Shown one piece after another: positions 1 through 12,743 of a stretch of DNA of 15,023 nt (position 1 is its first letter; each line of letters begins with the position of its first letter). The notes below the pieces were generated by a model. That model was not told the origin of the DNA and made no database searches. It saw nothing but the letters and a program-made list of their open reading frames with translations. A program made the position numbers and the translations under genes. The DNA comes from an uncultured bacterium. GTDB taxonomy: Bacteria; Hydrogenedentota; Hydrogenedentia; Hydrogenedentales; JAEUWI01. The stretch lies in assembly GCA_963977445.1 (NCBI GenBank), contig CAXBPH010000170.1, positions 1-15,023 on the forward strand. Reading direction: 5' to 3'.

Positions 1-280
1 TCGGCCCGGTTCGCCCGGTGAACGAAGTGATTACGTCGTGGTGCCAAGGTGATTGAAGATGAAGGGCGGGTGATGGAGATCGCCGTGGCTGTCCCTGAGG
101 GTTCGTCACGTGGGGATTCACACACGAACCGACGTTGTCGGATCGCGTGGCACGGGTGGCGTACGTGCGGTGCAGTCCCTGTGTCGTCGTTGGTGACTTG
201 ACTTGTCCGGGGGTTGTATTGAATGATGGCCGATGCACCTTGTGGCGTAGTTGCGCCGCGTAACAACTGAGGAATACTTC

Positions 281-4303: not shown

Positions 4304-4452
4304 TGCACCGACCATTTTGGGGATGTTGGGCCCGTCTGCAGTGCCTGCAGAAACGGGTGAGGTGTGGATAATTCTTACCTTTAGTGCCACGTCCTGAATT
4401 GGATAATCTATCGCCATCTACTCACGATCCGTGTAAGGAAGAAGGAGAACCC

Positions 4453-6351
4453 ATGTCTTTTCCTATCGACGTCAGCAACTACAAGCCGGTGGCCATTGAC
4501 CCCTTCAGTGGCGGTGCCATCACACCCGAGCAAAAAGCCCAGCTTCAGACCAACATCCAGATCGTTCGCGACACCATCGTGTTTTTCACGGCGGTCGCGG
4601 GCATCCGTGGTTTCGGTGGTCACACGGGTGGTGCCTACAGCATCGTTCCCGAAGTGTTAATCGCCGACAGCTTTATGAAGGGTAGTGACCGTGTGTACCC
4701 CGCCTATTTCGACGAGGGTGGACACCGGGTAGCTATCCAATACGCCATGAGCGCCTTCAACGGCGAAATGCCCTTTGAAAAACTCCTCCAGTACCGTGCC
4801 GCCGGTGCTGGCCTCTATGGCCACCCCGAGATCGACCCGGAACTCGGCATTAAATTCGCCTCCGGCCGTCTCGGTCACATGTGGCCCTTCGTCAACGGTG
4901 TGGCCAAGGCCAACAGCGATGGCGTGGTCTTCATGTTTGGATCCGACGGCTCCCAGATGGAAGGCAACGACGCCGAGGCCGCCCGCCTGGCCGTGGCCCA
5001 GCAGCTCAACGTGAAGCTGGCCATCGACGACAACAACGTAACTATCTCCGGTCATCCCGCAGATTACCTGCCCGGCTATGATGTGGCCCAGACCCTTACG
5101 GGTCATGGACTCACCGTGGACACGGGTGATGGCGAAGATTTCGACGCCCTCTATGCACGCATGCTCAAGTCGATTCAGACCAACGGCCCCGTTGCCCTGG
5201 TCAACAAGCGCAAAATGGCCCCCGGCATCCCGGGCATCGAAGGCACCCACGCGGGCCACGATGTTATCGACAAAGACTCGGCCATTGCCTACCTGACCCT
5301 TCATGGCCAGAACGCCGCCATCGACTTCCTCAATGCCGTCAAGAAAACCAGCGCCTCCGTAAGCTACGTAGGCTCCACGGCGGAACAGGGCAGCAACCGC
5401 ACCGAATTCGGCAACATCGTCAACGGTATTCTCGACAAGATCCCCGCCGCAGAACGCGCCCACAAGGTCCTCGTCGTTGACTCCGATCTGGAAGGTTCCA
5501 CCGGCCTCAAAGGCATTCGCGTGGCCCACCCCGACGTCTGCATCAACGGCGGCGTCCAGGAACGCGGCAACTTCTCCGCAGCGGCCGGCTTCGGCTTTGG
5601 CCCCGGCAAACAGGGTATCTTCAGCACCTTTTCCGCCTTCCTGGAAATGATTATCTCCGAGGCCACCATGGCCCGCCTCAACGGCTCCCGAGTGATTTGT
5701 CACTTCTCCCACGCCGGTGTGGATGAAATCGCCGACAACACCTGCCACTACGGCATCAACATCTGGCTCGCCCACAGCGGCATCAAAGAAGGCGACACCA
5801 ACCGCCTCTACTTCGCCGCCGACGCCGCCCAGCTTAAGAGCCTCGTGGAAACCATCTGGGACGACGAAGGCATCCGTTACGTCTTCACCACCCGGAGCAA
5901 GGTGCCCTACATCGCCAAGGAAGACGGCTCCAAGTTCTACGACGACAAATATCAGTTTGTCGCCGGAAAAGACGAAGTGCTCCGCGAAGGTACGGCTGGT
6001 TATGTCATCTCCTACGGTGAAATGGTTTACCGCGCTATCGACGCCGTGGACCGTGCCCGTGCCGAAGGCATCGACGTGGGCCTCATCAACAAGCCCACGC
6101 TCAACGTCATCGACGAAGACATGCTCAAGAAAGTCGGCGGCAGCCCCTTCGCCCTCGTGGTGGAAGCGCAAAACGAAAACAACGGCCTCGGCAGCCGCTA
6201 CGGCACCTGGCTCCTCGAGCGTGGCCTTGCCCCCAAGCTCGGCGTCATGGCCGTCCACAAGCCCGGTGAAGGCGGTATCGCCGAACACGTGCCCCACCAG
6301 GGATTAGACCCCGACAGCATCCTCGCTAAGATCAAAACGCTGGCTGGCTAA
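4453..6351 (+). CDS. Transketolase-family ThDP-dependent enzyme (divergent, single chain)
   Basis: ThDP motif GSDGSQMEG...IDDNN, plus GHTGG, GHPE, SGRLG, DSDLEGS, GVQE, STFSAF and a C-terminal transketolase domain. AAGGAG RBS before ATG 4453. Strong C-ending codon bias. Confidence 0.88.
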   Translation: MSFPIDVSNYKPVAIDPFSGGAITPEQKAQLQTNIQIVRDTIVFFTAVAGIRGFGGHTGGAYSIVPEVLIADSFMKGSDRVYPAYFDEGGHRVAIQYAMSAFNGEMPFEKLLQYRAAGAGLYGHPEIDPELGIKFASGRLGHMWPFVNGVAKANSDGVVFMFGSDGSQMEGNDAEAARLAVAQQLNVKLAIDDNNVTISGHPADYLPGYDVAQTLTGHGLTVDTGDGEDFDALYARMLKSIQTNGPVALVNKRKMAPGIPGIEGTHAGHDVIDKDSAIAYLTLHGQNAAIDFLNAVKKTSASVSYVGSTAEQGSNRTEFGNIVNGILDKIPAAERAHKVLVVDSDLEGSTGLKGIRVAHPDVCINGGVQERGNFSAAAGFGFGPGKQGIFSTFSAFLEMIISEATMARLNGSRVICHFSHAGVDEIADNTCHYGINIWLAHSGIKEGDTNRLYFAADAAQLKSLVETIWDDEGIRYVFTTRSKVPYIAKEDGSKFYDDKYQFVAGKDEVLREGTAGYVISYGEMVYRAIDAVDRARAEGIDVGLINKPTLNVIDEDMLKKVGGSPFALVVEAQNENNGLGSRYGTWLLERGLAPKLGVMAVHKPGEGGIAEHVPHQGLDPDSILAKIKTLAG

Positions 6352-6410
6352 TCCCACGGCGATAGCTTAAGACCCACCACGGCCCCGGAGAACTTCTTCG
6401 GGGCCGTTTT
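6266..6410 (+). repeat. Direct repeat copy 1 (transketolase 3' end plus terminator)
   Basis: Aligns ungapped with 9757-9901. Manual count gives 15 mismatches in 145 nt. Confidence 0.97.
6379..6410 (+). terminator. Intrinsic terminator after transketolase (short T tract)
   Basis: ACGGCCCCGGAG-AACTT-CTTCGGGGCCGT hairpin ending in only four T. Confidence 0.7.
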
Positions 6411-9400
6411 AGTATACTTAGGTAAGATTATTGTGGCAGGGGACTACTCGACTCTGATTTTAAAAGCGATCAGATGTTTACAAAAGGGGAACATGATGAT
6501 ACTAGGTTTTACTCCTCGGCAAAACAGGATTCTTAAGCGACTCGAACTTGTTGGGCCTGGTTCAAAAGCATTCTTTCAGGACTATGTGCGAATTAGAGCA
6601 TGTTCCGAAAACCTCGAAAGTACAACACATATCATCGGGCACCTTTTCCGAGAGATTGAAAGTGCGGTTCGTGACGTGATACTGCCGATATCTCCCCCAT
6701 GCGAGAAGAAAAAAAATGGTGACGAAAGTCACAAGCTTGAGATCGCTTCTTGTCTGAACGGACTCGAAATAGATCTCAATGATCCGATTTGTTCGATGTG
6801 GTATTCATTTACGGGACGAGATGGCTGCGCTTTGAATACGCTTGCACATCGGAATGGCTTGTATTTGTCTAAGATTGGACAACAAGAATCAAGTTTTCAG
6901 TGGGACAATTTCGAGGAGGTGATGGATGTAGTGCTCTCCAAATACGAAAGCAAGTATCTGACGATAATCTCCCAACTAGACGAACTGCTCCAGAAACCAA
7001 CACCTGGTAATATCGACGCAAAGAAGCTTGTTGGAAAGATACCTCAACACCCCACGATACTCCGGTACTTTCTGGAGCGAGTTCAAAATCCAGCTTGGCT
7101 GGACCTATTGGATACACAAGGTTTCTTCGCAAATCCACCCTCCAAGAGGTTGGCGCCTTCGGGTGACTATTTTGAGCTACCTAGTTGGTCAGCATCGAAT
7201 TTCTTGATCAGAATGGCACCGCTGGCGCCGACGTCAGTAGCAAGAGTCATCGCATCAATCGAGGGCGTAGACAATCGCAATATTTGTATGGATCTCGTCA
7301 ATGCAGTACTCCTGCTTCCCGCAGCAGAGCGAAAGGAAGTGGGAAATTCACTGACTACCTGGATCTCGAAGTGCGATCACATAGCGATTCACGATGACTA
7401 CGCCGAATTAATCGCGAAATTTCTTAATATAGGCGAGATCCAAAAAGCACTCGATCTCATTGAGCAATTGCTCTCAGTGAGGGTTTCGAATATATCTGAC
7501 ACGCCTGAATATCGCTTTGAAGAATGGAGTCTCGAGCATTTTCTCAAAAAAGTAGTGCCAGATTTAGGTAGAACTGGAGATATTCGCGCGCTTGACCTTT
7601 TCGCGCGCCTCCTGAACGAGAGCTTTACTGTGAGTGGTGAGAGAGGGTCACGTTGGCAGTTTTTCAATACTTCATCGCTTCCGGCCATCGAGGAACACGA
7701 ACAGAATCAGGAGTATATCGGCCACCAGTGTTATCTGGTCTTCGCGATTCGTGATATCGCACTAGCGTTGGCTACTTCTCACTGGAATGATGTAATTGCC
7801 TGTATTCGTCGCTACGATGACAGAATATTCATGCGTATAGAGCTTTACCTCCGGGCAAGGTTTCCCAAAAAAGATCTAAGGGGTACCGCGGAACTTCTCT
7901 TTCAGGAGGAGATCTTGAGAAAATCCGAATTCCATCATGAACTATTTCACCTCCTCAAGGCATGCTTTGGCGACCTTTCAGATTTGGCACAAGACTACTA
8001 CCTTCGATTTGTTGGCGACGAAGCAAGGCTGGCGGAGATTCGCGAGCGTCGAGGCGCCATAAAAGATGAAAACTGGCCACGTATCAAGAAACAACTGATC
8101 TATGGTGGCTTGATACCAATTGCCGATTACTTGGTGGGTGAATGGAAAACACGCTATGAGGCGTATTTAGCGGAGTTTGGCGAGAAGCCCCATCCTGATT
8201 TCGAGGTCTATATGGAGGGCGGCCGACTTATAAATCGTATGCCCACTCGACCGTTGGAGGAGTTCACTGCTTGCAGCGCGGAGGCATTTGCGAATCGAAT
8301 TCGAAGCCGATCCTGAGTCCAGTACTGACTCCAAGAGCGAGCTGGCCAACACACTGCGCGATCTAGTCGCCACGAGGACTGCTGAGTTTGCGGCTGGAGC
8401 GCCTTACTTTTCAGGCCTGCCGATCATGTACACACGTTCCTTTCTGGGGAGCATTCGTGATTACTTGGAAACTCAAAGGCCGCTGGAGCCAAATGCGTGG
8501 TGCTCGGTGCTGAAGCTTTGTAGCTTCGAGGTAAAACAGTATCGGAACGTAGTCGAAGATAAGCGAAACTATCGCGAAACCTACATGCACCTTCGAACAA
8601 TCATTTCCATACTGCAGTCTGGCTTCAAACAGGACGAAACCCATCTTCCGGTTGAAGAGCGAGACTTGGCATGGGAAGTTTTTCGTCCGCTGACAAATCA
8701 TCCGGACCCGAAGGCAGACGAGGAGGAAGCCGATGAGGATAGAGCGACTTCTTCGATAAACACCGTCCGGGGCGAGGCCATGCATACCGTAGTGGATTAT
8801 GCTTTGTGGGTTAAGCGCAACTTGGATAGTGATTTCAAAGGTATGGCGACGGTTCCCGAAGTGCGCGAGGTGCTGGAGAAGCGCCTAACCGAGGATGCCT
8901 CCCTCACGATTTGTGCCGTTTATGGCAAGTGGTATCCTTGGCTGGAAGCGATAGATCCAGATTGGGCGACGGAATGGAAGGCGCAAATCTTCCCAGAGTC
9001 AATTGAGAAGCGTAGATGCGTGGCATGGGAAACGTATGTCACCTTTTGTCCACCCTACAATGGGATCTTCGAAACGCTTAAAGGCGACTATGCCTGGGCT
9101 GTCGCCAAGATTGGGACGTGGCCAGAACGCCAGCGTTCCATGGGTCACCCCGATGAGTCCCTGTTGGAGCACCTGTTTGCCTATTACTGGCGCGACAGGC
9201 TGCCGCTGGATGACCCCGATATTTCGCTTCGCGAGGCCTATGCGAAAGCGTCAGAAGAGCACAAAGTCGCGGCGTTGCGCTTTGTTGGGCGTAGTATCAA
9301 AGAATGGATATTCGTCGGCGATGAGACATTAGACCGATTAAAGACGCTGTGGGTAGACGTGGTAAAGCCCGACGGTGAGCAAAAGACATTAGAAACCTTT

Positions 9401-9756
9401 GGGTTGTGGTTCAGCAGTGATAAATTTGATGAGTCATGGTCGCTTGCCGAGCTCCAATACGTGCTGGATTATGCTCACCCTTCCCAACCAGAGCATTGGG
9501 TAATCGAACGGCTTGCCACATTGTCCCAAGAATTTCCTGCCGAGTCGCTCGGCTGTTTGAGCAGTATGTATGACCACGTGGAATTTCCGGCGTATCTCGA
9601 ACACTGGTGGGAGCACGTGGTTGCCGTACTGCGGGCTGCAATTTGCGCAGAGGACCAGGATACGAACGCCGCAGCGATTCAACTTGCCAATATTATCGGG
9701 GCGAAGGGTGTCAGCTCAGAACATCTCGACGAACTGCGCAGGCTCGTGAAGCCGCA
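6411..9756. mobile_element. Horizontally acquired islet inserted at the transketolase 3' end; no mobility gene
   Basis: Bounded by 145 bp direct repeats. Visibly lower GC and loss of the host C-ending codon bias (frequent TTA, ATA, AGA, CGA). Confidence 0.8.
6493..8316 (+). CDS. Hypothetical protein, N-terminal part: HEPN-like domain followed by an alpha-helical region
   Basis: 607 aa ORF from ATG 6493 (or 6496) after AAGGGGA. HLFREIE and LNTLAHR motifs, then Leu/Trp-rich helical sequence. Function is inferred only. Confidence 0.7.
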   Translation: MMILGFTPRQNRILKRLELVGPGSKAFFQDYVRIRACSENLESTTHIIGHLFREIESAVRDVILPISPPCEKKKNGDESHKLEIASCLNGLEIDLNDPICSMWYSFTGRDGCALNTLAHRNGLYLSKIGQQESSFQWDNFEEVMDVVLSKYESKYLTIISQLDELLQKPTPGNIDAKKLVGKIPQHPTILRYFLERVQNPAWLDLLDTQGFFANPPSKRLAPSGDYFELPSWSASNFLIRMAPLAPTSVARVIASIEGVDNRNICMDLVNAVLLLPAAERKEVGNSLTTWISKCDHIAIHDDYAELIAKFLNIGEIQKALDLIEQLLSVRVSNISDTPEYRFEEWSLEHFLKKVVPDLGRTGDIRALDLFARLLNESFTVSGERGSRWQFFNTSSLPAIEEHEQNQEYIGHQCYLVFAIRDIALALATSHWNDVIACIRRYDDRIFMRIELYLRARFPKKDLRGTAELLFQEEILRKSEFHHELFHLLKACFGDLSDLAQDYYLRFVGDEARLAEIRERRGAIKDENWPRIKKQLIYGGLIPIADYLVGEWKTRYEAYLAEFGEKPHPDFEVYMEGGRLINRMPTRPLEEFTACSAEAFANRIRSRS

Positions 9757-9760
9757 GTGA
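8288..9760 (+). CDS. Hypothetical protein, probable C-terminal continuation of 6493-8316 in the +1 frame
   Basis: 490 aa ORF overlapping the previous one by 29 nt. Poor TTG start. Same helical, Trp-rich character (INTVRGEAMHTVVDYALW). The stop codon lies inside repeat copy 2. Confidence 0.7.
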   Translation: MRIEFEADPESSTDSKSELANTLRDLVATRTAEFAAGAPYFSGLPIMYTRSFLGSIRDYLETQRPLEPNAWCSVLKLCSFEVKQYRNVVEDKRNYRETYMHLRTIISILQSGFKQDETHLPVEERDLAWEVFRPLTNHPDPKADEEEADEDRATSSINTVRGEAMHTVVDYALWVKRNLDSDFKGMATVPEVREVLEKRLTEDASLTICAVYGKWYPWLEAIDPDWATEWKAQIFPESIEKRRCVAWETYVTFCPPYNGIFETLKGDYAWAVAKIGTWPERQRSMGHPDESLLEHLFAYYWRDRLPLDDPDISLREAYAKASEEHKVAALRFVGRSIKEWIFVGDETLDRLKTLWVDVVKPDGEQKTLETFGLWFSSDKFDESWSLAELQYVLDYAHPSQPEHWVIERLATLSQEFPAESLGCLSSMYDHVEFPAYLEHWWEHVVAVLRAAICAEDQDTNAAAIQLANIIGAKGVSSEHLDELRRLVKPQ

Positions 9761-9901
9761 AGGCGGCATCGCCGAACACGTGCCCCACCAGGGCCTCGAC
9801 CCCGACAGCATCCTTGCAAAGATCAAAACGCTGGCTGGCTAAGCCCACCGCGATAGCTTAAGACCCACGACGGCCCCGGAGGTTTACACCGGGGCCGTTT
9901 T
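9757..9901 (+). repeat. Direct repeat copy 2 (displaced transketolase 3' fragment plus terminator)
   Basis: 9759-9842 encodes EGGIAEHVPHQGLDPDSILAKIKTLAG-stop, identical in amino acids to the transketolase C-terminus. Confidence 0.97.
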
Positions 9902-9904
9902 TTT
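9870..9904 (+). terminator. Intrinsic terminator (second copy)
   Basis: Perfect 10 bp stem ACGGCCCCGG/CCGGGGCCGT running into T7. Confidence 0.88.
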
Positions 9905-10066
9905 GTGTTATGGGACGAGTGGGACGGCCGCGAAGTCCTGTGTCGTGGACGCAACGGGGTATGCTCAATTGGGGCTACTTCAACCATCGGTCGCACCTTC
10001 CTGTTTGGTATGTTTTTTGTCTTGCGCAGAAGCATATTTCCAACATACTGGCGATCTACGTGCATA

Positions 10067-10103
10067 TGATTGCATTGACAGCGATGCGATCAACGATTAC
10101 GCT
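10067..10103 (+). promoter_or_regulatory. Sigma70 promoter with overlapping inverted-repeat operator
   Basis: TTGACA (10075-10080), 17 bp spacer, TACGCT (10098-10103). The -35 is flanked by TGATTGCA (10067-10074) and TGCGATCA (10085-10092). Confidence 0.75.
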
Positions 10104-10124
10104 ATAGGTAAAGGAGCTTTCGCC

Positions 10125-10331
10125 ATGGCTAATATCACTATTCGAAATTTGCCCGATGACACGATAAAAATTCTCTGGGCTCGCGCTGCGGAACACGGGA
10201 TGTCGCTGGAGGGATATGTCCTGGAACTATTGCAGCAGGAGTCCGCACGGGAATCCGTCCCCGCAGTATCGATAGCGGATTTGGCTCGCAGGATTTTCGG
10301 CCCCGAGCACGGCATAGAACTGCGCCCGTAG
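10125..10331 (+). CDS. FitA-like ribbon-helix-helix antitoxin / plasmid-stability protein (orphan, possibly C-terminally truncated)
   Basis: MANITIRNLPDDTIKILWARAAEHGMSLEGYVLELL matches the FitA/Arc RHH pattern. AAGGAG RBS at 10111. 68 aa. Confidence 0.85.
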   Translation: MANITIRNLPDDTIKILWARAAEHGMSLEGYVLELLQQESARESVPAVSIADLARRIFGPEHGIELRP

Positions 10332-10468
10332 ATAGTAAATAGCAGGAGTCTTTCGGGAGTAACTCGGGGCGCTCCCCGGGGACTGCAACGACGTGGCAAC
10401 TTTTACCCAGCGCTGCAAACCCCGTGGTTGGCCTACGATGGCACTTCAGGGAAGCACGCGAAGAACGT

Positions 10469-10515
10469 CGGGGCCGTCCCCCTGAGTGTGATTTCCCTCG
10501 GGGGGGACGGCCCCG
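10469..10515. repeat. Strong GC-rich inverted repeat
   Basis: CGGGGCCGTCCCCCTGAG ... CTCGGGGGGGACGGCCCCG, with no T tract on either side. Confidence 0.7.
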
Positions 10516-10698
10516 GCGGTTACCATCGTTATTTCATACAAGACAACGCCTGTTGACCACGTGGTTCACCAGGCCACAGCAACATCACTCGGCCGGTGCA
10601 GTCCCCGGGGTTCCTTCTTCGCGTTCTTGCTTGTAGGCCGTGTTGTCGTTAAGCTGCTACAGCTACGGTGCCGCTTCGGCGCTGTATCAGGGGCCGCT

Positions 10699-12597
10699 AT
10701 GAATCCAACGCACAACGACTATGGAACCGACCTGGCCTCGTTGCGAGAGCCAACGGGGCCGCCACCTATTCCGCTGCGGGAAGCGGAGGGGCGGAGTCTG
10801 GCCGATTGGGCGGTGGATGCCCTCATTCCCCTCATGATTTTCTGCATGATGCTTTCTGTCACGTGGTTCTTGCTGGATATCCGCTTTGTCTACACCGAAC
10901 GGCTGGACCTCAATTATCGGGCCTTTGCCTTTTTCTTTGTGATGGGCATTGTGGCGCTCAACCGATTACGGGCGGAGCGGGGCCTGGCCGATTCGGCGGT
11001 TTATATGGTGGGCCTGGTTTTTGCCGTGGGCGTCTTTACGCTCGTCTCCCAATCCCGGGGCGGTGGCGTGGCGGGTGGCTATCTCGGCGGTGTCGTTCTA
11101 TCTTTGTGTTTTAATCTTGCCGTGGTGGTGGTGTTATGGCGGGTGACGGATCGACTCACACGGGATTGTTGTGTGGATGCGAGTAGCCGCTATGGTGAAG
11201 AAGGCATCCTGCGCAGTCGTTGGACCTGGCGAAGGTCGCTTGCGGTGGAAGTGGCTGACACCGCAGTGCCGTCGGACGATGGAGCGACCGGGGCGAAGCG
11301 GCCACCCCGAAAACATCCGGCCAGTTCGCTCTTTTATCTGGCCCTGCCGATTCTGGCTATCCTCGCCGCCGGGCAGCGGATACTCCCTCAGGGCGGCACC
11401 TTTCTGGAGTCTGCGGGCAGTGTCTACGTGGGCACCTATACGGCGTCCATGCTCATGCTGTTGCTCCTTTCCAGCTACCGAGGGTTACGGGTCTATTGCC
11501 AGCGTCGGGAAATTAATTTCCCCACGAGTATCGCGGCCTTCTGGCTCGGGTTGGGCACCGTGATGGTGGCGCTGGTCTTTGTCCTGGGCTTGTGGGGGCC
11601 TGTCCCAGTGACGGCCCCACCTGGCGGGAAGGTGGCCCGCACCTATGACAGCACCGGGCGAACCCTGTCTGATCGCCGGGATTACCACGAACATGAACGG
11701 GAAGGCGAGTCTGGCAGTCAACGTGCTTCGCGTGAAGCCAACCCGGACGGGAACGGAAATGATGGCGCGGGACCGGGTGACGAATCGGGTGGCACGGAAA
11801 GCGGCGGGGACCAGGGGACCGAAGGTGGGGGCGAGGCCGGTGGTGAGGAACGGGACGGCGTCCAAAGTTCGGAAGACGGTAGCCAGACCAACAATGACGA
11901 AGGGGCCGGGGACACGGAGCGTCAAGGGGCTGGCACCGAGGAATCCTCTACGTCTCCCCGTGAGGATGCTGTGCGCTCCGGCACCGAAGACGGGTCGGGC
12001 GCTTCCGCTAAATCGGCTTCAACACCCCGGGCGGAAGTGCCCATGAATGCCTTGATGGAGAGTTTTCCCGGTTTGAAGTGGCTCGGCTATGGGGCCCTGG
12101 CGCTCGTGGGCCTCTTTGTGTTGTATATGCTGCTCCAGGCCGCGGCCCACTTCTTCGGGCAGGCCTCCCGCCGTCCTTCCCGCTTTGCGCGGTGGTTTGA
12201 ACGGCTCTCCCGGCTCTTTCGTCGGCTGACCTATGTGCCCAAGCGCAAACCCCGTCGTGCCCGGGTGAAAATCGACCGGGACATCGCCACCTGCGCCCAT
12301 TTTCAGAATCCCCTCGATGGTCCCCTGCCCCTGCGGGAAAAAATCCAATACAGCTATGATGCCCTCTGTGCCCTGGCCTATGATCTGGGTGTGCCACGGG
12401 AAGAGGACCAGACACCCTTTGAATTTCTGGCCCAGCTGCCCGAGCCCATCGCGGCTATTCGGAATGAGGCCCATGTGCTCACCCACCTCTATGTGGCGGG
12501 GAGTTATTCCGCCCTCAACGTGCCCGAATCGGTCCTCGATGATCTACGGGCATTCTGGAAGCGTTTTGAGCGAATGCGTTCTAAGATCGTGCGCTGA
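10699..12597 (+). CDS. Multi-pass membrane protein with acidic low-complexity linker and C-terminal DUF4129-like domain
   Basis: About 8 hydrophobic segments, a G/E/S/D-rich linker, one more TM segment, then YSYDALCALAYDLGVPREEDQTPFEFL...LTHLYVAGSY (DUF4129-type RxxxxTPxEF pattern). Start uncertain. Confidence 0.72.
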   Translation: MNPTHNDYGTDLASLREPTGPPPIPLREAEGRSLADWAVDALIPLMIFCMMLSVTWFLLDIRFVYTERLDLNYRAFAFFFVMGIVALNRLRAERGLADSAVYMVGLVFAVGVFTLVSQSRGGGVAGGYLGGVVLSLCFNLAVVVVLWRVTDRLTRDCCVDASSRYGEEGILRSRWTWRRSLAVEVADTAVPSDDGATGAKRPPRKHPASSLFYLALPILAILAAGQRILPQGGTFLESAGSVYVGTYTASMLMLLLLSSYRGLRVYCQRREINFPTSIAAFWLGLGTVMVALVFVLGLWGPVPVTAPPGGKVARTYDSTGRTLSDRRDYHEHEREGESGSQRASREANPDGNGNDGAGPGDESGGTESGGDQGTEGGGEAGGEERDGVQSSEDGSQTNNDEGAGDTERQGAGTEESSTSPREDAVRSGTEDGSGASAKSASTPRAEVPMNALMESFPGLKWLGYGALALVGLFVLYMLLQAAAHFFGQASRRPSRFARWFERLSRLFRRLTYVPKRKPRRARVKIDRDIATCAHFQNPLDGPLPLREKIQYSYDALCALAYDLGVPREEDQTPFEFLAQLPEPIAAIRNEAHVLTHLYVAGSYSALNVPESVLDDLRAFWKRFERMRSKIVR

Positions 12598-12743
12598 TGT
12601 ATAGTATGGGTGAATAAATATGGCGACATTGCGTCTATAACCGTAGTGTCGCAATTGCTCCAGACACCGTGTATCTGGAATACTGCTTTCCGCAGGCCAT
12701 GGGTCTGCTTGAAGAGCGATTTTCTCGATTGATGAAGGGAAGT

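Follow-up and report, generated by a model that had tools for sequence, protein, structure and literature searches.

Here we describe a stretch of 15,023 bases from an uncultured bacterium of the phylum Hydrogenedentota (GenBank contig CAXBPH010000170.1), in which the 3′ end of the transketolase gene, tkt, is present twice, together with its terminator, on either side of a large gene of lower GC content. In this Hydrogenedentota genus, defence genes collect in the interval that separates the tkt terminator from the next conserved gene, AP_endonuc_2, a hotspot that is empty in one related genome and filled with different genes in others. The gene end that now completes tkt (copy A) was very probably imported together with the cargo gene, and the end that lies behind the cargo (copy B) would then be the displaced native one, left within a variable defence slot. 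The fuller explanation, in which the hotspot and the imported end are combined with an illegitimate join on the right-hand side of the cargo, is in our judgement evenly balanced between right and wrong.

The window, meaning the whole stretch analysed, is the entire 15,023-base contig (C170) of a metagenome-assembled genome (MAG) in 464 contigs that is 94% complete. The genome to which the window belongs is designated G000, other G numbers denote related genomes and L numbers denote fetched loci.

The duplicated end of the transketolase gene

Orthologues of tkt were found in all 41 of 41 related genomes, and within the genus their products are 85-93% identical at the amino acid (aa) level. The gene, the two copies of its end and the sequence that continues the second copy are located as follows.

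4384..6351, + strand: tkt, encoding transketolase (Pfam Transketolase_N, Transket_pyr and Transketolase_C), the core-gene anchor of the slot
6266..6410, + strand: repeat copy A, the live tkt end, with the last 27 codons and stop (6268-6351), a spacer, a hairpin (6379-6407) and a short T run
9757..9901, + strand: repeat copy B, the probable displaced tkt end, with the last 27 codons and stop (9759-9842), a spacer, a hairpin (9870-9898) and a run of seven Ts
9902..9925, + strand: native-type GGGAC-rich post-terminator spacer continuing copy B (the blastn alignments to G007 and to the G003 distal copy run through 9925)

A repeat search of the window returned the two direct copies, each of 145 nucleotides (nt), with 90% identity and a spacing of 3,491, in agreement with an earlier note on this DNA that had described direct repeats of 145 bp lying 3,491 bp apart. 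The copies differ at 15 positions, six of them within the 27 duplicated codons and nine in non-coding sequence. Both the alignment and the extracted gene tails bear out the claim, made in the same note, that all six coding mismatches are synonymous (GGT/GGC, GGA TTA/GGC CTC, CTC/CTT and GCT/GCA), and the same peptide, EGGIAEHVPHQGLDPDSILAKIKTLAG*, is read from either copy. When six random changes were simulated in the duplicated stretch, all six were synonymous in 1 of 10,000 trials. Six of the nine non-coding mismatches, which the note had placed in and beside the terminator loop, fall in the loop of the hairpin, and the hairpin folds with about -27 kcal/mol in both copies (z -4.1 and -3.3), that of copy A being a predicted 13-pair terminator. 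The longest run of identity between the copies is 26 nt.

In the whole 7.1-Mb assembly the repeat is present in exactly two copies (E 1.4e-70 and 2.1e-50), which excludes a dispersed repeat or a chance match; no third copy of the repeat or of the tkt tail was found in this 94%-complete assembly. A dispersed hairpin element was also considered and rejected: across the whole genome the hairpin pattern matches copy B alone, and the 145-mer occurs twice.

Comparison with eight relatives gave a consistent picture of which copy is native. Copies A and B are each other's closest match (78 of 84 nt identical) and share states found in none of the eight relatives; therefore, the donor of the foreign copy would have been a very close relative. 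Each of the eight is nearer to copy B than to copy A, with 66-76 as against 63-73 of the 84 nt in common. When the coding mismatches were polarised on the same relatives, five of the six proved to be derived in the live copy A and one in copy B. Divergence in place predicts that most changes should have accumulated in the dead copy B, whereas the observed ratio is 5:1 toward the live copy (P ~0.0013), and such divergence with no second event is accordingly disfavoured. The synonymous character of the differences and their concentration in copy A thus speak for the view, put forward in the earlier note, that this is not a decaying local duplication.

Beyond the repeat, the 24 nt that follow copy B match the native post-terminator spacer of G007 and that of the distal copy in G003. 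Also, a 497-nt contig of a related strain, from a public sequencing run, carries the copy-B letters at 6276, 6303, 6304, 6306, 6352 and 6358. It is the polarity of the mismatches, the nearness of copy B to the relatives and its native 3′ flank that mark copy A as the foreign end and copy B as the native one. The note had supposed that one copy came from a related genome and replaced the resident end; the comparison agrees, with copy A as the odd copy and copy B, together with the 24 nt after it, native-like. A compositional shift was tried as further proof that copy A is foreign and was discarded: all five derived changes in copy A are toward A/T, but the tail block is no outlier within tkt, either in lineage-specific changes or in GC content at third codon positions (GC3).

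The slot behind transketolase in related genomes

Approximately 10 kb downstream of tkt was compared in seven members of the genus and in one genome of another genus (G006 was omitted, its tkt lying at a contig end). These downstream regions share tkt alone with the window. A right-hand block that starts with AP_endonuc_2, a xylose-isomerase-like TIM-barrel gene, is present in G001, G002, G003, G004, G005 and G008, and the same gene is the right-hand neighbour in two metagenome contigs, L047 and L048. In G002 the slot is empty, with 166 nt from tkt to AP_endonuc_2. Relative to this empty site, homology in G008, G001 and G004 breaks at the end of the terminator hairpin and resumes ~2.0, 6.3 and 6.1 kb later, respectively, and it is at the same point, the end of the hairpin, that the islet of the window starts. 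The slot contents observed were the following.

G008 (~2.0 kb): an M78-peptidase-like gene and a 223-aa open reading frame (ORF)
G003: a 545-aa protein with no assigned family
G005: PDC-M68A/B (E 3.5e-84 and 1.1e-215) and a ribbon-helix-helix (RHH)-PIN pair (L025 4086-4813)
G001 (~6.3 kb): a 1,160-aa protein and an Mrr-type nuclease
G004 (~6.1 kb): IetA/IetS (E 4.9e-71 and 6.9e-37)
G007: a group II intron reverse transcriptase (RVT_1 and GIIM; L024 2473-3840, - strand), with the contig ending beyond it
L047 (metagenome contig): an RHH-PIN pair
L048 (metagenome contig): nearly empty

PADLOC matches were obtained in the slots of G000, G001, G004 and G005 and, weakly, G008, and a cytosine methylase stands behind tkt in G011. 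An empty site and seven different occupants behind tkt in related genomes substantiate the suggestion of the earlier note that the locus serves as a slot for cargo, with a core gene as its anchor; the check that it had recommended, a search across relatives for an empty site or alternative cargo, found both. A scan with a degenerate pattern of the tkt tail returned two short metagenome contigs and five contigs of genus genomes, with no strain-level relative among them.

In G011, which belongs to another genus of the same family, a C-5 cytosine DNA methylase gene (L030 2104-3111; E 1.1e-67) stands directly after tkt and is followed by ORFs with no assignment. The post-tkt position may therefore be a hotspot beyond the genus.

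Local duplications just past the tkt terminator are found in five of the eight genus genomes analysed. In G007, a pair of 113-nt direct repeats (197-309 and 471-582 in oriented coordinates) lies beside the reverse transcriptase gene, just past the terminator. In G001 (L027 9465-10034), a tandem array with at least four copies of a 95-nt unit, 92-96% alike, directly follows the terminator and precedes the 6.3-kb low-GC insert, whose 1,160-aa protein has no Pfam or PADLOC match.

In three of the same eight genomes, G000, G003 and G004, the tkt terminator region stands on both sides of the cargo. In G004 (L029 5840-9776), IetA (8808-9776) and IetS (6287-8830) follow directly after the tkt terminator; behind them come a relic (6223-5840) of the last 128 residues of a homologue of the window's cargo, at 50% identity, then ~190 nt of the trailing sequence of that relic, and then a second tkt spacer and hairpin (5588-5640). 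It would seem that, in this slot, an older defence system was largely overwritten by a newer one. In G003, the spacer, the hairpin and a second hairpin region occur on each side of the 545-aa gene. The GGGAC-rich block, which sits at the native position in the closest relative, G007, is present in the distal copy and absent from the proximal one, so that the distal copy is again the native-like one. The edges of the three duplications differ, the distal copy starting ~84 nt before the tkt stop in G000, at about the stop in G003 and 6 nt after it in G004, and no crossover point shared among them was found.

Homologues of the window's cargo at other loci were inspected in six of seven fetched loci (L044 was left out). 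No flanking repeats were found in L040, L041, L043, L045 or L046, and the sixth locus, L042, has local downstream repeats alone. Because the homologues elsewhere are unbracketed, the bracketing belongs to the slot and not to the cargo. The repeats of L042 (contig C34 of G004; 9687-11524 and 12617-12732) comprise four 172-nt units and a nine-fold tandem repeat of a 9-nt GGGAC-rich unit, and they stand downstream of a second, intact cargo homologue of G004. The same GGGAC motif makes up the native spacer that follows the tkt terminator in G000, G003 and G007.

The cargo gene and its protein family

The islet between the repeats has a GC content of 0.44-0.55, as compared with ~0.58-0.62 in tkt, which speaks for a foreign origin. 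Two ORFs, 6433-8316 and 8288-9760, overlap within it and are read in different frames.

6433..8316, + strand: front part of the cargo, a 627-aa ORF, with a helical, putatively HEPN-like N-terminal domain (~6493-7040) followed by the first half of a DSR1-type alpha-solenoid
8288..8316, + strand: frameshift zone, the overlap of the two ORFs; homologues are single ORFs, unbroken across this point
8288..9760, + strand: rear part of the cargo, a 490-aa ORF, with the remaining half of the DSR1-type solenoid; the ORF ends in TGA (9758-9760), a stop that overlaps the start of copy B

The two ORFs match consecutive parts of the PADLOC Dsr1 profile PDLC04166, which has 1227 positions: residues 174-527 of the front ORF match positions 288-661 (E 4.9e-13), and residues 4-367 of the rear ORF match positions 755-1112 (E 6e-20). 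In other genomes of the phylum the homologous gene is a single ORF, of 1,141 aa in one case and 1,188 aa in another, and aligns straight through the break. From these consecutive matches and unbroken homologues it follows that the two ORFs are one gene, frameshifted in the window. The cargo is a single, horizontally acquired gene of lower GC content (0.44-0.49 in its front part) for a protein of about 1,110 aa, the true start of which is probably the ATG at 6493; given the frameshift, the copy in the window is either dead or mis-assembled. Homologues of the rear part are present in 8 of 135 genomes of the phylum, G000 included. Neither ORF matched any Pfam or NCBIfam family, and comparison of the cargo with the PDB sequences gave no match below E 0.003.

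An exhaustive search revealed the size of the family, with 2,556 related cluster representatives at E ≤0.001 and 406 at E ≤1e-30. Among the matches listed, most are 1,100-1,150 aa long (typically ~1,130) and align from about query residue 27. By the profile matches of both ORFs, the middle and C-terminal region of the DSR1 type is present in the cargo, and an intact homologue, the 1,141-aa ORF of L040, matches PDLC04166 from position 293 to 1176 (E 2.5e-46). The sirtuin part of the profile, its first ~290 positions, is left unmatched, the matches of the window and L040 starting at 288 and 293. Furthermore, no SIR2 match to Pfam was obtained in the window ORFs, in seven homologous ORFs or in 40 family members at E ≤1. 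Membership of the cargo in DSR1 was rejected for lack of a SIR2 domain, and annotation pipelines may label such SIR2-less proteins of the family as DSR1.

In place of SIR2 there is a conserved helical N-terminal domain, which when modelled alone gave a predicted local distance difference test (pLDDT) score of 91.0. The model of the 627-aa front ORF is an all-helical alpha-solenoid (pLDDT 85.6). Foldseek returned nothing at E ≤0.001 for either model; the weak matches above that threshold were to importin- and adaptin-like repeats for the solenoid (best E 0.012), while the best fold matches of the N-terminal domain were to HEPN proteins. In alignments of 40 and 60 members, residues R73, W123, H139 and R140 (P0001 numbering) are invariant and H66, H70, E74, E76, S77 and R80 nearly so, with H139 and R140 sitting in a conserved R-A-H-R stretch of the N-terminal domain. 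The motif of the HEPN superfamily is R-x(4-6)-H, and no conserved R was found 4-6 residues before a conserved H in the aligned members. Another candidate, PF18165 (pP_pnuc_1, a predicted pPIWI-associated nuclease), had come up as a look-alike in a language-model comparison (0.92, with 203 of 256 features shared) and was set aside when profile searches did not confirm it: none of 40 family members matched at E ≤1, and the whole genome gave no match at E ≤10.

We therefore describe the cargo as a DSR1-like body, a putative sensor, attached to a non-sirtuin N-terminal domain that might be a nuclease. On the analogy of DSR1 and DSR2, recognition of a phage protein by the solenoid would activate the N-terminal effector. 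An anti-phage role is likewise suggested by context, the same slot being occupied in relatives by IetA/IetS and PDC-M68. Like DSR1 and DSR2 (10.1101/2021.12.14.472415; PMC11850899), the cargo would be a single large protein that joins an N-terminal effector to a long body of alpha-solenoid type. Unlike them, it has no SIR2 domain, its first ~170 residues forming a different, helical and possibly HEPN-like domain, and the copy in the window is frameshifted. Since SIR2 is replaced by a different domain, NAD+ depletion is not expected for the cargo. The analysis thus brings to light a large, unstudied DSR1-like family with a conserved helical domain, possibly a nuclease, in the place of the sirtuin.

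To the right of copy B the window contains one further gene of a type found in the slot.

10125..10331, + strand: orphan FitA/VapB-like ribbon-helix-helix antitoxin gene (Pfam FitA-like_RHH, E 5.5e-12)

Its product shows 62% aa identity to the RHH protein of the RHH-PIN pair in the G005 slot and 48% to that of L047. No PIN match that could represent its partner was found in the window, and the gene is probably older slot content. Neither the genes to the left of tkt nor those to the right of copy B adjoin tkt in the relatives compared. Elsewhere in the window, a second patch of lower GC content (1400-2200; 0.43-0.51) holds an HU-like gene (1527-1841, - strand; Bac_DNA_binding, E 1.3e-23) and small ORFs with no family matches.

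Route of entry and comparison with known systems

A Pfam scan of the 25 window ORFs detected no integrase, transposase or relaxase family, in keeping with the earlier note, which had seen no recombinase in the locus. On the left, 22 nt separate copy A from the first possible start codon of the cargo, at 6433, and 82 nt separate it from the ATG at 6493. On the right there are no nucleotides at all between the cargo and copy B. With so short a gap on one side and the cargo stop codon overlapping copy B on the other, there is no room for relics of an element. The two junctions are of different kinds, the repeat being continuous with tkt on the left, while on the right there is microhomology between the cargo stop and the tkt tail. 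The ending ...GTGA is also found in the cargo relic of G004; since GTGA is the cargo's own ending, the join shares 2-4 nt (GTGA or GA) with tkt.

For the route of entry we favour, at somewhat less than an even chance, homology-facilitated illegitimate recombination with an illegitimate right-hand join. The donor would have been a close relative with the cargo already in place downstream of its tkt, and the incoming DNA would have brought with it the donor's last 27 tkt codons and terminator, now copy A. Its left end would have paired with the recipient tkt by homology, while its right end, at the cargo stop codon, would have been joined illegitimately inside the recipient tkt at the 2-4 nt of microhomology, pushing the recipient's own gene end and terminator, now copy B, downstream intact. 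By this route the islet would have needed no recombinase of its own. An illegitimate join of this kind would explain the clean polarity of the copies, the differing edges in three genomes and the absence of a recombinase. Selection would keep those products in which the terminator and the short intergenic region before AP_endonuc_2 remain intact, and would in this way favour duplications over deletions.

Several observations weigh against this account. With regard to the copies, when tkt is divided into 24 blocks of 27 codons, 8 lineage-specific changes fall in the tail block and 101 in 23 of the blocks (range 1-13), so that the tail does not stand out. Polarising single sites carries some risk, because the outgroups belong to other species (tkt DNA 79-88% identical). 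Also, the contig of the related strain differs from the window by ~1.8% over 5927-6265 and shows at least 10 differences over 6266-6358; the change of history may begin at the left edge of the repeat, which would fit a fixed crossover better than a homologous exchange upstream. With regard to the donor, no genome was found in which this cargo stands directly behind an undisturbed tkt, and the donor arrangement is hypothetical. The public read run, in which 6% of the sampled words were found, yielded contigs that cover parts of tkt, of the RHH gene and of the DUF4129 gene, and none in 6435-10108. Finally, with regard to the right flank, AP_endonuc_2, followed by a cNMP (cyclic nucleotide monophosphate)-binding gene, lies in G000 on another contig, C208 (L057 867-1826), and the DUF4129 gene and others to the right of copy B have orthologues in relatives that lie well away from tkt, ~300 kb in the case of the DUF4129 gene of G008. 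Either the slot is also a rearrangement breakpoint or the contig ends before the neighbour is reached. The far end of C208 (L057 11854-12000) is 94% identical to window positions 1-145, which is probably a repeated gene segment; the placement of AP_endonuc_2 on C208 suggests either that the slot was rearranged or that the assembly was interrupted by a repeat.

The alternative that survives best, although we consider it unlikely, is site-specific integration, in which a stripped integrative element, or a minimal passenger of an integrase encoded elsewhere, targeted the 3′ end of tkt, with copy A as attL, copy B as attR and the crossover at the left edge of the repeat. The layout, with a live surrogate end and a displaced native one, is that which such elements leave. 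According to all the polarised differences, moreover, the crossover lies no more than 10 nt into the repeat, and the rise in divergence from the related strain at the left edge of the repeat would suit an integrase that acted in trans or has since been lost. However, none of the 25 window ORFs is a recombinase gene, the 22-nt left gap and the absence of any gap after the cargo leave no space for relics, and the third copy of the tkt tail that a resident helper would carry is missing from the 94%-complete assembly. In addition, the duplications of G003 and G004 begin elsewhere and share no core with that of the window, and the cargo homologues at other loci are unflanked by repeats in five of six cases, the sixth being L042 with its local repeats.

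A distinctly less probable alternative is that the cargo cycles without a recombinase, looping out through its two bracketing copies and re-entering a relative by a single homologous crossover in the tkt tail and terminator. Direct repeats of 145 nt permit such looping out, terminator-bracketed cargo is seen in three genomes, and the hairpin is conserved across the genus. Nevertheless, a homologous crossover should give mosaic copies, and the copies are not mosaic. The polarised sites put the crossover in the first 10 nt and the longest identical run is 26 nt; 10 nt is too short for RecA-type pairing. No alternative junction was found in the assembly, either. We give correspondingly little credence to the broader claim that the tkt terminator region is a recombinase-free exchange site, from which bracketed single-gene defence cassettes loop out and re-enter related genomes. 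If it were true, this would be a natural cassette system that does the job of an integron without an integrase, and its footprint would be seen in the recurrent bracketing of cargo in three Hydrogenedentota genomes, a direct clue to the way in which defence hotspots without integrases acquire their genes. An integron cassette proper was considered and rejected: the window has no integron integrase, and the hairpin is the genus-conserved tkt terminator (no attC model was run).

It is improbable that the gene end was duplicated in place when the cargo was inserted and that the live tkt end was later overwritten, through homologous recombination, by the allele of another strain. Differences that are purely synonymous and concentrated in the live copy would result from this sequence of events as well, and local duplications behind the terminator are common, as the 95-nt array of G001 and the 113-nt pair of G007 illustrate among the five of eight genus genomes that have them. 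This explanation invokes two events where one suffices, however, and requires the second exchange to end between the left edge of the repeat and the cargo.

Very improbable, lastly, is an assembly artefact in which the contig joins two strains or loci and the copies never stood on one molecule. The contig is a short one of a fragmented, 464-contig MAG, and its right flank is next to tkt in no relative. Yet the copies differ at 15 of 145 positions, have at most 26 identical bases in a row and share 2-4 bases at the join of cargo and copy B; with so little sequence in common, the assembler had no repeat to jump across. Native post-terminator sequence follows copy B, the same layout occurs in two other assemblies, and a mixture of strains within the cargo would still leave a displaced tkt tail behind it.

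The locus can be compared with three kinds of known system. Integrative elements target gene 3′ ends (att sites of the tRNA/tmRNA type) and restore them, and their integrase-less remnants are known as cis-mobilizable elements (CIMEs). The tkt locus resembles these in that the repeats amount to a surrogate end and a displaced native one and that the crossover lies at the repeat's 5′ edge; it differs in that a recombinase and other element genes are absent, the three bracketed loci have no crossover point in common, and the genome has no helper copy.

The second kind is the core defence hotspot (cDHS) of Pseudomonas aeruginosa (PMC10250203), which is a variable, lower-GC, defence-rich region between conserved core genes, not tied to one type of mobile element, and is proposed to spread by homologous recombination through its flanks, leaving no mobile-element scars. 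The tkt slot shares the former features, but it is tiny (0-6 kb, often a single gene), it belongs to an uncultured phylum, and it does bear a scar in three of the eight genus genomes analysed, where the left-hand core gene has its end and terminator duplicated. The filling of defence hotspots that lack mobile-element genes is named as future work by the authors of that report. The scar described here is a readable one, with an imported end of the upstream gene beside a displaced native one, differing edges in two sister genomes and an empty site, and the idea of recombination through the flanks is thereby made testable with strain-resolved metagenomes.

The third kind comprises the "orphan" arrays of type VI secretion system (T6SS) effector-immunity and Rhs/contact-dependent inhibition (CDI) loci (PMC5361080). 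For the T6SS and Rhs loci, that source proposes homology-facilitated illegitimate recombination that pushes old gene 3′ ends and immunity genes downstream. In both cases a module is anchored by homology to the upstream gene, the resident 3′ end is shifted downstream, and no integrase is involved. In those arrays a toxin tip and immunity gene are displaced and usefully kept, whereas the piece displaced here belongs to a housekeeping gene and comprises 27 codons and the terminator; the incoming cargo here is, moreover, an unrelated defence gene. Taken together, the locus resembles known kinds, the core defence hotspots and the displaced-end arrays, and is not a new kind in itself; the recurrence of differently edged duplications of a core-gene end, with an empty site for comparison, offers a way to study the filling of defence slots that lack an integrase.

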